UHGV virus genome: UHGV-1842250
Strand: one strand, 5' to 3'
Length of the DNA stretch: 13,971 bases
Source: a virus
The number at the start of each line of letters is the position of its first letter. Within the stretch, counting starts at the first letter, position 1. Below are positions 3,458-12,115 of the stretch, piece after piece. The position numbers were made by a program, and so were the translations under genes. Under the pieces are notes generated by a model. That model saw only the letters and a program-made list of their open reading frames with translations, made no database searches and was not told the origin of the DNA.

Positions 3458-4399
3458 TTACATAGATGTTTCGTTTAATTCTTCTCGACGAACGCTGTAA
3501 ACGTCGGTGGCTTTTGCCAGCAGTTCGTCATCATCTGAAAGTTTTTGTGCAATGTATTTGTAAGCCTTATCCAGTTCGGAGACAGTGCTGTAATTCATCG
3601 CTGCGCTGGTAAAGGCCATCAGCATTTCTTCTGGATCACGGCTATCCGATTTACGCGTTTGCTCATCAGGCTTTTTCGCTGGTTTAGCGTTGATCAGACT
3701 GTTCATTCCCGCAGCAGTGGTCGTTTGCGGAGTAATGTCTCGCTCAACGCGCGGTGCCGTTTCCTGTAATTCGTCTGGGGTGTAGACGCCCATGATTACG
3801 TCAGGACAGTGCAGGCGAGACCAGCGTTTTGTCGCAAGGTATGCGAGTTGTTGTTTCGGATCACTGGCCCAAAGTGTGGAGTTTCTTACCTGTGCTTGAG
3901 ACAGCATTAACTCAAGCACTCGAGGTTGATCCTCGCCCTTCATGGTTGCCCATACGCGAACACCGCAGCCTTCTTCGTCTTTTAGAGTCCAGCCTGGTGC
4001 GATATATGGATTGCCGTTTTTGGATGTTTTCTCAACAAACTTACCGATCACGCGTTCCCACGGCCCAAACCACTCGTAGTTGATGCGATCTTTTGTTGGC
4101 GACATCGTTGAGATAACTGCGTTTACTAATTGGGCTTCATAACCTAGCGTGCCGTTCACAACATGGGTTTTCTGAGCCACGGCAAACGGGTTCATTCCCC
4201 ACTGCGCAGCCTGCATTGCCACGGCCATGCAATCAGCTGGTTTCCCGGCGAGGTGCGCCGGTACCGTTACGCGGCTTTGCGCCATTACCTCGGCGAATTT
4301 CATCAGTTGGTTCAAGCCGTCTGGGCTGAAAATAGTTGCAGCAGTTCCAGCGATTGCTGTGTCTACTGGTGCGTTGATGTTTGCGATGTCGTTGCTCAT
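3458..4399 (-). CDS. bet: Single-strand annealing protein, RecT/Red-beta (Bet) family
   Basis: 313 aa. The segment ETAPRVERDITPQ resembles the lambda Bet region ERQPERDITPV, and the gene sits directly downstream of an exonuclease gene as in the lambda exo-bet pair. Start ATG at 4399 has AGGA upstream and overlaps the exonuclease stop (ATGA). Confidence 0.85.
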   Translation of the reverse strand: MSNDIANINAPVDTAIAGTAATIFSPDGLNQLMKFAEVMAQSRVTVPAHLAGKPADCMAVAMQAAQWGMNPFAVAQKTHVVNGTLGYEAQLVNAVISTMSPTKDRINYEWFGPWERVIGKFVEKTSKNGNPYIAPGWTLKDEEGCGVRVWATMKGEDQPRVLELMLSQAQVRNSTLWASDPKQQLAYLATKRWSRLHCPDVIMGVYTPDELQETAPRVERDITPQTTTAAGMNSLINAKPAKKPDEQTRKSDSRDPEEMLMAFTSAAMNYSTVSELDKAYKYIAQKLSDDDELLAKATDVYSVRREELNETSM

Positions 4400-4926
4400 A
4401 TGTACATATCCTGTTTGCGTGCCCACTCAGGGCGTTTAATGATTTCCACACCGCCCCATTCATCATTGATGCGGCATTCGTGATAGGTATTCAGATCCCG
4501 GCGGAACAGAGCGTGCCCGGCATCGACATCCTGCGCATCCAGCTCGAACACGCGTACCGGATACCGACCACAATCAATGCTTTCGCTCACGGCAAGAAAG
4601 AAAAAACCATGCGGCTGACCAGTAACCCTCATTGCGCCTTCGCGGTACATTGCGTCCTGCACGTGGTAGCGGAATTCCTCGATGTGGCGTGCAAAACGGT
4701 CCATATCTGCAACCTTTTTCACGTCGACGATCACGTTGTGCTCGTTCAGCCATTTGTCTGGACGAATTCGGCACAACTCACCCGTCTCTTCATCGTTCCA
4801 GTACATTGATGCTTCGCAGTAACCAGGTGCTTCCAACATCCAGCGTGCCGCCGGATGAGCCATTGCGCTATCACGCATAAGCTCCAGTTTCCGCCACTGC
4901 TCGGCATCAAGTACCGTAATCACCAT
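4396..4926 (-). CDS. PD-(D/E)xK exonuclease, C-terminal part (gene interrupted by a frameshift)
   Basis: Contains the nuclease core motifs RIRPD ... VIVDVKKV. This reading frame is open from 5130 to 4396, but its first ~55 codons overlap the N-terminal fragment's frame and look non-coding; 4926 is the first internal ATG. The partner fragment is 4937..5212. Confidence 0.7.
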   Translation of the reverse strand: MVITVLDAEQWRKLELMRDSAMAHPAARWMLEAPGYCEASMYWNDEETGELCRIRPDKWLNEHNVIVDVKKVADMDRFARHIEEFRYHVQDAMYREGAMRVTGQPHGFFFLAVSESIDCGRYPVRVFELDAQDVDAGHALFRRDLNTYHECRINDEWGGVEIIKRPEWARKQDMYI

Positions 4927-4936
4927 ATCCGCCACA

Positions 4937-5212
4937 TCACGAAGCCTCTTCGTCAGCTTTACCTTGTTTCGTCCGACGATCGAATTTCGGTGAAACAATG
5001 AAGCGTTTGTCGAACTCTCCAGGCTCCAGAAGCAGACAGTGCAATGCGGTTCCCATATCCAGTGCAGACTTTTTCTCTTCGTCTTCTGGTGCTGCCTGAA
5101 CCCATTTAAGAAGCGCCGGATTCTTGGCAACCATGTCCAGTTGCGACTTACTCACGCCGTCACCGGCGTGGTAGTCTTCGTTGCTGATGTCGAAATAAAT
5201 TCCCGGTTTCAT
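4937..5212 (-). CDS. PD-(D/E)xK exonuclease, N-terminal part (ends at a premature stop after a probable frameshift)
   Basis: 91 aa beginning MKPGIYFDISNEDYHAGDGVSKSQL ... GTALHCLLLEPGEFDKRF, which looks like the N-terminal region of phage Cas4/RecB-like exonucleases. Good SD (GAGGGA) before the ATG at 5212. The frame stops at 4937 while a second frame continues the nuclease domain. Confidence 0.7.
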   Translation of the reverse strand: MKPGIYFDISNEDYHAGDGVSKSQLDMVAKNPALLKWVQAAPEDEEKKSALDMGTALHCLLLEPGEFDKRFIVSPKFDRRTKQGKADEEAS

Positions 5213-5508
5213 GCCGCGTCCCTCTGTCCATCAAGCTGATCCGCCAGATCCCAGCGGGCGATAATTGCCATTGCCTCGCGCCGGTAGGCATCCATAAGTT
5301 CTTCGAACTCAGGGCTGTCTTTAGCTGCCTCCAGCACTTCCTGGCGAACTCCTTTGCCTGTTACAGCGTCAAAAGTTGAGGCCAGTTGATGAAGCCGGAT
5401 GCTCTCGATCAGTTCAACTTGTCGGTCATATAACTGTTCTGACAGGCGGTAGTCCTTGTCGAATGCCAGCATGATTTTTTGAAGATTTTTCTGCTGATTA
5501 ACGTTCAT
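5209..5508 (-). CDS. Hypothetical early protein, function unknown
   Basis: 99 aa from the ATG at 5508 (MNVNQQKNLQK...), which has a strong SD (GGAGG, 8-nt spacing). The stop overlaps the exonuclease ATG (ATGA). It sits where lambda carries N, but is not arginine-rich, so not N-like. Confidence 0.6.
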   Translation of the reverse strand: MNVNQQKNLQKIMLAFDKDYRLSEQLYDRQVELIESIRLHQLASTFDAVTGKGVRQEVLEAAKDSPEFEELMDAYRREAMAIIARWDLADQLDGQRDAA

Positions 5509-5510
5509 TA

Positions 5511-5663
5511 TCAGCCCTCCCATATCTCGTTATCGTTGGCTACATCGCGAGCTTCTTTGCTGACGAAAGCCCACTTAATGCCTTCCTGTAAGGTGCGGAA
5601 CTTCCAGCTCATGAATCCGCATGCAGTAACGCAGTACCAACCGTTGATGATTTTCCACTGCAT
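5511..5663 (-). CDS. 50-aa micro-ORF, first gene of the leftward operon, possibly cIII-like
   Basis: Translated by hand as MQWKIINGWYCVTACGFMSWKFRTLQEGIKWAFVSKEARDVANDNEIWEG. It lies about 27 nt downstream of the predicted leftward promoter, has GAGG upstream, and stops 2 nt before the next start. Loose resemblance to lambda CIII (MQYAIAGW..AGC ... RKLRDGWKRLI). Too short for the ORF track. Confidence 0.35.
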   Translation of the reverse strand: MQWKIINGWYCVTACGFMSWKFRTLQEGIKWAFVSKEARDVANDNEIWEG

Positions 5664-5682
5664 AACTTGTTACCTCGGTCTG

Positions 5683-5697
5683 TTACCGTTGAGGTAA
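5683..5697. promoter_or_regulatory. Operator site, perfect palindrome TTACCGTTGAGGTAA, promoter-proximal in the leftward (PL-like) promoter
   Basis: Exact TTACC-N5-GGTAA. It abuts the candidate -10 of the leftward promoter, and an extra TTACC half-site sits at 5670-5674. Confidence 0.6.
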
Positions 5698-5725
5698 TAA
5701 TTATGCGTATATGGTTTGGTGTCAA
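5697..5725 (-). promoter_or_regulatory. Candidate leftward early promoter (PL analogue)
   Basis: On the minus strand: perfect -35 TTGACA (5725..5720), 17-bp spacer, -10 AATTAT (5702..5697). Flanked by operator sites at 5745-5759 and 5683-5697, the same layout as the promoter at 8778-8806. Confidence 0.5.
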
Positions 5726-5744
5726 TAGATATGAGTTAAAAAAA

Positions 5745-5759
5745 TTACCCGTTAGGTAA
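5745..5759. promoter_or_regulatory. Operator site, perfect palindrome TTACCCGTTAGGTAA, promoter-distal in the leftward promoter
   Basis: Exact TTACC-N5-GGTAA, centred 62 bp from the site at 5683-5697. Confidence 0.6.
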
Positions 5760-5772
5760 TCGAATAGGCAAT

Positions 5773-5795
5773 AAAAAAGCCGCCATAAGGCGGCT
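5773..5795 (-). terminator. Rho-independent terminator after the repressor gene
   Basis: On the minus strand, stem GCCGCC / GGCGGC with 4-nt loop followed by a U-tract (plus strand AAAAAAGCCGCCATAAGGCGGCT), about 20 bp after the repressor stop codon. Confidence 0.65.
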
Positions 5796-5816
5796 TACTT
5801 ACTGAAAAATATGATT

Positions 5817-6401
5817 TTATTGTTTGTTTTTTTCGTTCTGGTTGATGACAAATTCAATGTAACTTTCGATCTTTGCCTTCTCTGTTTCAGGTAACAATGC
5901 GTAGCGCGAGCGGTCATAGTTGATAGTTGCAGGGTCATGCGGATGAATCAGTAGTTCATATCCGTGACGCCCGAATGCAGATGCAACATTCTCCAGGGTG
6001 GAAATGGAAACGCTGACCTCATTGTTTAACAGGCGGCTTATTGTCACCTGGGCGACGCCGGATGCGCGGTGAAGTTTTCCCTGAGTTGAAAGGTCGCGGC
6101 TTTCACTCATCCAGCGTTCCAGGTTGTGAGCTGCCAGCTGACCAATGTCGCTTGGGCCGACAGGCTGAAAACCTTCCTGAGAAAGCGAGCGATCGATATC
6201 AAGCCAGTTACGGGGTTTATTGGCGGCAGCTTCAATTTTTCGCGCAACCTGGTCGCCGATAACTTTCTTGCCAAGAGCCCAGCGGTTTACCAGATTTGCC
6301 TGAGTTCCAAGTTTTTCTGCCATCCGCGTCTGAACACCATTGAATTCACGGTCGATCAAGTCGTTGAGATTTTGCCTGCGGACGTCCTGGATACTTTTCA
6401 T
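5817..6401 (-). CDS. Phage repressor (cI analogue) with two HTH domains and no recognisable LexA/S24 autocleavage domain
   Basis: 194 aa, divergent from the Cro-like gene across an operator-rich spacer. HTH-like segments QTRMAEKLGTQANLVNRW and ASGVAQVTISRLLNNEVSVSISTLENVA. No S24 peptidase serine-lysine dyad or Ala-Gly cleavage context seen. No SD before the ATG, so the transcript may be leaderless. Confidence 0.8.
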   Translation of the reverse strand: MKSIQDVRRQNLNDLIDREFNGVQTRMAEKLGTQANLVNRWALGKKVIGDQVARKIEAAANKPRNWLDIDRSLSQEGFQPVGPSDIGQLAAHNLERWMSESRDLSTQGKLHRASGVAQVTISRLLNNEVSVSISTLENVASAFGRHGYELLIHPHDPATINYDRSRYALLPETEKAKIESYIEFVINQNEKNKQ

Positions 6402-6456
6402 TTTCTGGAAAATCGCCTCATATATGAATCAGTAGATGATTCAATTTAAAGCAATA

Positions 6457-6519
6457 TTACCCAACAGGTAAATGCACCTCATAGGTAACTATCCTTGATT
6501 TTTGTTACCTTATGGGTGA
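6457..6519. promoter_or_regulatory. Immunity-region operator cluster of three sites between the repressor and cro-like genes, with divergent promoters
   Basis: Sites at 6457-6471 (TTACCCAACAGGTAA, perfect), 6474-6488 (GCACCTCATAGGTAA) and 6505-6519 (TTACCTTATGGGTGA). Candidate rightward promoter: -35 TTGATT (6494-6499) or TTGTTA (6502-6507), -10 TATTAT (6525-6530), overlapping the third site. Confidence 0.6.
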
Positions 6520-6555
6520 ATATTTATTATCTGAAATAAATATCAGGCAATAGCT

Positions 6556-6786
6556 ATGAGCGATAACGGACATTTCGATTTCAAAAAGCACTGGCTTGCA
6601 CTTACTCCGGATGAGCGTGAAGCCTTCGCACAGGAAGCCGGAACGACGAGTCACTATATCCAGACTCACTTAACAGGTAAGCGCAAAATGCCAGGTAAAG
6701 TATTGATGAATGGGCTTTTTAAAGCCTGTAAAACAAGACAATGGCTGCGCTCAAAAGCAGAACTGGCATACTTCTTCTACTCATGA
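6556..6786 (+). CDS. Cro/CII-like small HTH regulator, first rightward gene
   Basis: 76 aa at the cro position of the divergent immunity cassette, with an HTH-like segment EAFAQEAGTTSHYIQTHLTGKRK. Followed immediately by an intrinsic terminator. Confidence 0.75.
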   Translation: MSDNGHFDFKKHWLALTPDEREAFAQEAGTTSHYIQTHLTGKRKMPGKVLMNGLFKACKTRQWLRSKAELAYFFYS

Positions 6787-6807
6787 TATCCAGCTACAAC
6801 CCTCTGT

Positions 6808-8743: not shown

Positions 8744-8758
8744 TTACCTGCTAGGTAA
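8744..8758. promoter_or_regulatory. Operator site, perfect palindrome TTACCTGCTAGGTAA, promoter-distal in the promoter for the accessory block
   Basis: Exact TTACC-N5-GGTAA, centred 62 bp from the site at 8806-8820, the same spacing as the pair at the leftward promoter. Confidence 0.6.
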
Positions 8759-12082: not shown

Positions 12083-12115
12083 TTACCACAACGGTAACTA
12101 TTACCACGGTGGTTA
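12083..12115. promoter_or_regulatory. Tandem operator-like sites immediately upstream of the terminase small-subunit gene
   Basis: Perfect TTACCACAACGGTAA (12083-12097) followed 18 bp later by TTACCACGGTGGTTA (12101-12115). Half-sites chain as GGTA-cta-TTACC-N5-GGTAA-cta-TTACC-N5-GGTTA, echoing GGTAACTATCC at 6485-6495. No convincing sigma70 -35/-10 pair nearby. Confidence 0.5.

Follow-up and report, generated by a model that had tools for sequence, protein, structure and literature searches.

A 50-codon open reading frame (ORF) stands at the head of a leftward phage operon, at positions 5511-5663 of a 13,971-nt stretch of viral DNA (UHGV-1842250; the whole stretch is called the window here). 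Is it a gene, and what might its product do? The original prediction described it as an unannotated ORF with faint features of CIII, the FtsH inhibitor of phage lambda. Its account of the local anatomy held up in our analysis, whereas the absence of annotation and the resemblance to CIII did not.

The window covers the integration and early region of a prophage of the epsilon15/phiV10 type (Uetakevirus). Positions 4900-6500 are 97% identical at the DNA level to phage phiV10 and its relatives, and the gene order agrees with that of the prophage adjoining guaA in E. coli 97-3250. The ORF and the repressor gene that flanks it are:

5511-5663, minus strand: gp37-family gene, 50 aa (PhiV10p39; epsilon15 gp37; WP_001198620.1; PHROG 898)
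5817-6401, minus strand: prophage repressor, two HTH_3 domains (PhiV10p40; epsilon15 gp38)

A conserved gene of a narrow family

Translation of the minus strand at 5511-5663 reproduced exactly the 50 residues that had been quoted. The ATG at 5663 is the sole possible start, with an in-frame TAA three codons upstream. ORFs of 40 aa or more number 115 in the window, so the size of this one alone is not above chance; what marks it as real is its conservation. The PHROG 898 profile ('unknown function') matched positions 1-50 of the 50 residues (E = 1.9e-38), 16 phage records, phiV10 among them (PhiV10p39, YP_512294.1), carry the protein with 100% identity, and epsilon15 gp37 (NP_848245.1) is of equal length and 79% identical. 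In phiV10 and epsilon15, as in the window, the gene is placed between the repressor operators and gp36. The conservation in related prophages on which the original prediction depended was thus borne out, and it extends to the signals ahead of the gene, with operator, Shine-Dalgarno (SD) sequence and ATG kept in 11 loci.

Substitutions in gp37 are patterned as in a protein-coding sequence. Across nine loci from Escherichia, Salmonella, Klebsiella, Citrobacter, Scandinavium, Pseudocitrobacter and Erwinia, dN/dS was ~0.07-0.25; over codons 1-25, dN was ~0.03 with dS saturated; and variable columns numbered 13, 15 and 35 at codon positions 1, 2 and 3, respectively. The gene is under strong purifying selection. 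The antisense ORF that overlaps it (5479-5697, plus strand) showed no conservation. A reading of the locus as an RNA element is unsupported, given the same substitution pattern and the lack of any Rfam match in the window. These comparisons point to a genuine protein-coding gene of a catalogued family, which is presumably translated.

The gene was already known. Since publication of the epsilon15 and phiV10 genomes it has carried the label of hypothetical protein, and a separate PHROG is devoted to it. To call it unannotated is wrong for public records (PhiV10p39/YP_512294.1, epsilon15 gp37 and the RefSeq E. coli protein WP_001198620.1) and was true merely of the ORF track behind the original prediction. 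Our literature search found no paper that mentions the protein by name, accession or sequence; the ZX5 paper covers the repressor, anti-repressor and integrase only.

The family is narrow. An exhaustive profile search yielded 19 matches among 1.84 billion representatives; a second profile search, over 5.8 billion proteins, yielded 62 clusters. The genuine matches are all stand-alone proteins of ~46-54 aa, their source names are all 'hypothetical' or 'uncharacterised', and their source organisms, where named, are all Enterobacterales. The gp37 family is confined to epsilon15-like (Uetakevirus-type) phages and prophages of this order. A protein of 1929 aa (P0030) that scored E = 2e-19 against the gp37 profile proved to be a tandem-repeat artefact and not a relative, its score being the sum over many weak 'NK[LVF]RTLFH' repeats. 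NCBIfam gave no match to gp37, and a PDB sequence search gave nothing below E = 0.27.

Several natural variants were seen among the homologues. In one (P0037), an in-frame deletion has fused gp37 residues 1-16 to the C-terminal end of gp36, the product of the next gene; another (P0001) carries an internal duplication of WYCVTACGF, and a third (P0005) an insertion of two residues.

Promoter, operators and translation signals

The region between the repressor gene and gp37 holds the following features:

5769-5796, minus strand: intrinsic terminator (8-bp G+C stem and T run) of the repressor transcript, immediately ahead of the leftward promoter; annotated in phiV10
5745-5759: second operator-like palindrome, TTACC-N5-GGTAA, 62 bp from the promoter-proximal one and upstream of the -35
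5697-5725, minus strand: predicted leftward sigma-70-like promoter, TTGACA-17-AATTAT, 10 of 12 matches to the consensus
5683-5697: promoter-proximal operator-like palindrome, TTACC-N5-GGTAA, abutting the -10 and covering the inferred start site
5672-5676, minus strand: SD sequence GAGGT, 8 nt upstream of the gp37 ATG

The predicted promoter is the only sigma-70-like site on the minus strand between 1400 and 5800. Transcription would begin near 5690 and leave a leader of ~27 nt, in agreement with the distance first reported, and the GAGG that had been noted upstream of the ORF was seen at 5676-5672, 8 nt 5' of the ATG.

The promoter is bracketed by the two palindromes, with gp37 directly behind, and repressor-binding sites are annotated at the matching positions in the RefSeq record of epsilon15. 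Each of the 11 loci that were compared has such a palindrome 27-34 nt upstream of the gp37 ATG, followed by a purine-rich SD at the equivalent place. With at most one mismatch allowed, TTACC-N5-GGTAA occurs 10 times in the window (0.22 expected); a version with N6 spacing gave no sites, N5 being the correct spacing. The 15-nt sites found by this pattern search lie at 136, 5683, 5745, 6457, 6505, 6842, 8744, 8806, 12083 and 12101. As originally described, gp37 is a small gene heading the leftward operon. The operon is repressor-controlled, the ribosome-binding site of gp37 is good, and the next gene is tightly coupled to it.

Some of the palindromes are paired elsewhere in the window. The pair at 8744/8806 has the same 62-bp spacing as the leftward pair and lies just upstream of a DUF1064 gene, and another pair is found at 12083/12101. 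From their sequence, these pairs beyond the immunity region suggest further repressor-controlled promoters.

A 10-nt inverted repeat was also seen at 5667-5700 (TTGTTACCTC / GAGGTAATAA), with one arm holding the gp37 SD and the other overlapping the -10 and the operator. It could sequester the SD if transcription began upstream of the inferred start; more probably, it represents an extra operator half-site (GGTAAC) beside the SD.

Position of gp37 in the operon

Downstream of gp37, the window carries:

5209-5508, minus strand: gp36-family gene, 99 aa (PHROG 856), starting 2 nt after the gp37 stop
3458-5212, minus strand: recE (PD-(D/E)XK) and recT, the downstream genes of the gp37 operon

The gp37 TGA occupies 5513-5511 and the next ATG is at 5508, which agrees with the 2-nt gap first noted. 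This gp36 start is the one used in phiV10, and the PHROG 856 match begins at residue 6 of the longer ORF. The gp36 SD, GGGAGGG, lies inside the last gp37 codons. In all 11 loci, the start of the next gene overlaps or abuts the gp37 stop (ATGA, GTGA or within 2-4 nt).

Could gp37 be a leader cistron only, translated in order to load ribosomes or couple the next gene, with a functionless peptide? The stop-start arrangement is universal whatever gene comes next, the SD of that gene sits within the last gp37 codons, and the C-terminal 10 residues of gp37 are poorly conserved and modeled with low pLDDT, all of which would suit such a role. A spacer, however, would not be expected to keep its length or to be constrained at the amino-acid level as codons 1-25 are, and we consider this reading very improbable.

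The place of gp37 in the operon is constant. In the window and in 10 further loci, it stands at the operon head, behind the operators and ahead of exonuclease and RecT genes, and the gene maps of L016-L019 agree with this position. At locus L013, one 60-aa gene precedes gp37, and an operator-like site still lies just before the gp37 SD. The gene that follows is gp36 in most loci. Insertions of ~270 nt to 1 kb separate gp37 from the gp36 slot in L007, L011, L013, L016 and L019, an extra gene in the case of L007 and L011. The exonuclease type also varies between phages; in L014, a 550-aa RecE-like fusion (5150-6802) comes directly after gp37. Because the downstream genes vary, the constant feature is gp37 at the head of a repressor-controlled operon and not any fixed neighbor.

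In the Serratia- and Hafnia-type relatives, the insert between gp37 and the gp36 slot encodes an Ala/Glu-rich, coiled-coil-like protein of 326-348 aa, whose start overlaps the gp37 stop:

L013, 5153-6199: Ala/Glu-rich coiled-coil-like gene
L016, 4150-5196: Ala/Glu-rich coiled-coil-like gene
L019, 3249-4229: Ala/Glu-rich coiled-coil-like gene

Two observations concern the gp36 slot itself. The N-terminal part of the RecE-like protein of L014 carries the gp36 C-terminal motif W-[DQ]-LAD, and the protein in the slot of L019 (4240-4524), which is not BLAST-similar to gp36, matches the Pfam GamL family (PF28165). GamL is the phi80 inhibitor of RecBCD (PMC12315714). Because of this gp36-RecE fusion and this GamL-family protein, the slot seems to be an anti-RecBCD or RecE-accessory slot, and gp36 is probably an accessory of the RecE/RecT module.

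It follows to ask whether gp37 belongs to the same module, for example by modulating a host nuclease or by loading the exonuclease or annealase together with gp36, RecE and RecT. It is always in the operon upstream of the exonuclease and RecT pair, its stop is coupled to the following start, and gp37 and gp36 each occur in 36 phage records, with identical counts by organism name. This co-occurrence is confounded by common ancestry, however, and the anti-nuclease slot seems already to be taken by gp36. Moreover, several lineages have unrelated genes separating gp37 from the gp36 slot, and gp37 is nearly invariant although the exonuclease type changes. A recombination accessory is, in our judgment, an unlikely identity for gp37.

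A simple scan found no intrinsic terminators on the minus strand inside the operon, so an antitermination role for gp37 is not obviously needed.

In the window, recE has a 5-nt deletion at ~4944-4946 (minus strand) relative to phiV10 and E. coli 97-3250, which splits it into the frames 4937-5212 and 4396-5130; this reflects either a decaying prophage or a sequencing error. Both gp37 and gp36, upstream of the broken recE, are intact. In one distant relative (L013), a DNA polymerase III theta-like (HOT-type) gene (4211-4477) comes immediately after the repressor gene, on the upstream side of the leftward promoter, and may be co-transcribed with the repressor.

Predicted structure of gp37

AlphaFold with 15 close homologues returned a single helix at low confidence (pLDDT 56), which was uninformative. 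With 22 sequences, including distant members, pLDDT rose to 73.8, and the model has three strands (residues 2-6, 9-14 and 18-22) followed by a helix (25-48). With moderate confidence, gp37 is thus predicted to form a three-stranded antiparallel sheet packed on one helix (a beta3-alpha unit), a model that rests on this one moderately confident prediction and on the sequence pattern. The pattern agrees with it: hydrophobic residues alternate, W31, F33 and A38 are helix-facing residues, and G8 (invariant in the family) and G16 (nearly invariant) fall at two predicted turns. The protein is rich in aromatic residues, with 5 Trp in 50. Its two cysteines are not conserved in distant members, which makes a metal site or disulphide unlikely. 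A membrane peptide was rejected because hydropathy is too low for a membrane span (maximum KD(19) 0.3-1.0), and with a net charge of -0.5 to +2.5 at pH 7, gp37 is not strongly basic.

The model resembles beta3-alpha mini-domains with scores that any small sheet-plus-helix unit would give. Sequence identity is only 2-13% to MmoD, the HicB N-terminal domain, dsRBD-like domains, AP2 and T7 gp1.2, and a Foldseek search with the model returned nothing below E = 0.29, giving no evidence of homology to beta3-alpha domains. Another reading makes gp37 a small DNA-binding regulator of early transcription, with a beta3-alpha domain akin to AP2 or the integrase arm, and a hairpin motif gave a lead to the latter. 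That lead amounted to an hhalign probability of 10.5% over 8 columns; neither this nor the Foldseek scores were significant, and Pfam gave no match. The E. coli protein has a net charge of about -0.5 and a pI of 6.1, unusual for a stand-alone DNA binder, and a Cro-like gene and the repressor already fill the regulatory roles. We therefore regard a DNA-binding regulator as quite improbable.

Comparison with lambda CIII

Like lambda CIII (54 aa), gp37 (50 aa) is a small protein encoded in a repressor-controlled leftward early operon of a temperate enterobacterial phage, with promoter and operators directly upstream. The strings on which the original prediction relied, the MQ[WY]xI start (MQ[WY]xI..GW) and the R-x-L-x-x-G-x-K stretch, occur literally in both proteins. 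We compared gp37 with the CIII sequence of the lambda record and with an alignment and profile built from 21 CIII sequences.

An end-to-end alignment of gp37 with CIII scored somewhat above shuffled sequences (p ~0.007). In contrast, the Smith-Waterman local score was that of shuffles (22 vs. 20.1 ± 3.8, p = 0.30), BLASTP of gp37 against lambda CIII gave no alignment at E ≤ 100, and neither the ORF nor any of the 22 family members matched Pfam Lambda_CIII (PF02061) at E ≤ 10. The gp37-family and CIII profiles aligned by hhalign with 0.9% probability over 7 columns (MQWKII vs. MQYAIA). The shared strings carry little weight of their own: in the gp37 family alignment, G28 is mostly replaced by Ala and K30 is variable, so the cited motif residues are not under selection, and the N-terminus varies even among true CIII proteins. 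Nor does the gp37 family alignment hold a counterpart of the conserved CIII core, ESLLERITRKLRxGWKRL.

The activity of CIII resides in a central amphipathic alpha-helix, and CIII is otherwise an essentially helical peptide with unstructured ends. The fold predicted for gp37, beta-beta-beta-alpha, is unlike this. CIII also protects a CII-type activator, and family matching of the small genes adjacent to the immunity region recognized no CII homologue; of the two small genes that the rightward promoter precedes, one matched a Cro-type repressor PHROG and the other PHROG 1081 (unknown function). An analogue of CII unrelated in sequence may still be encoded here. Finally, lambda cIII lies several genes into its operon, whereas gp37 is usually first.

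With no similarity in sequence, profile or predicted fold, we reject membership of gp37 in the CIII family. That gp37 nevertheless inhibits FtsH and so guards a lysogeny activator, whether as a distant homologue or as a non-homologous analogue, is highly unlikely; for analogy, there is nothing positive beyond gene size and operon position. The structural half of the original interpretation, a real small gene heading the operon, stands, the CIII-like function does not, and the CIII label should not be passed on.

A proposed role: early protein with a conserved partner

What, then, might gp37 do? We think it fairly probable that this genuine epsilon15 gp37/PhiV10p39 gene, not homologous to cIII, is the first to be expressed on derepression and that its product binds a conserved partner. 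Its synthesis would start once infection or induction frees the operator of repressor. The protein would work stoichiometrically, through binding to a strongly conserved partner, and a host protein common to Escherichia, Salmonella, Klebsiella, Serratia and Hafnia is the most probable one. In this respect it would be like other small products of the early-left operons of temperate phages.

The argument for a partner comes from the contrast between gp37 and its neighbors. Between relatives, the N-terminal 25 residues of gp37 are 92-100% identical, whereas identity is 41-73% for the flanking repressor, ~50% for gp36 and 50-78% for the Cro-like protein. A nearly invariant N-terminus among diverged neighbors suggests that the partner does not change along with the phage, and the simplest candidate is a host protein that Enterobacterales have in common. 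A conserved partner encoded by the phage would explain the strong N-terminal conservation equally well. In addition, the homologues all belong to one phage lineage with conserved synteny, so the constant position of gp37 could reflect inheritance and not function.

Our more specific proposal is tentative, and we rate it as possible rather than probable: gp37 may represent an uncharacterized class of immediate-early host-takeover protein, a beta3-alpha module that neutralizes a host protein found throughout Enterobacterales. Possible targets would include a protease, a division protein, a nuclease or a component of transcription, and the fold would be unrelated to those of the known small phage inhibitors. 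Small early phage proteins have repeatedly proved to be specific inhibitors of host machinery, and the host-directed proteins of early-left operons are typically lineage-restricted orphans. Lambda Kil (47 aa), which inhibits FtsZ, is similar to gp37 in size, operon and expected timing of expression; BLASTP found no alignment between the two at E ≤ 100.

A defined target would be useful, and the present data point to no specific one. In a common prophage type, no other small gene at the very beginning of the early-left operon is as conserved as gp37. Prophages of this type were detected in 558 of 5426 complete E. coli genomes (~10%) and were also found in Salmonella, Klebsiella, Enterobacter, Serratia and Hafnia.
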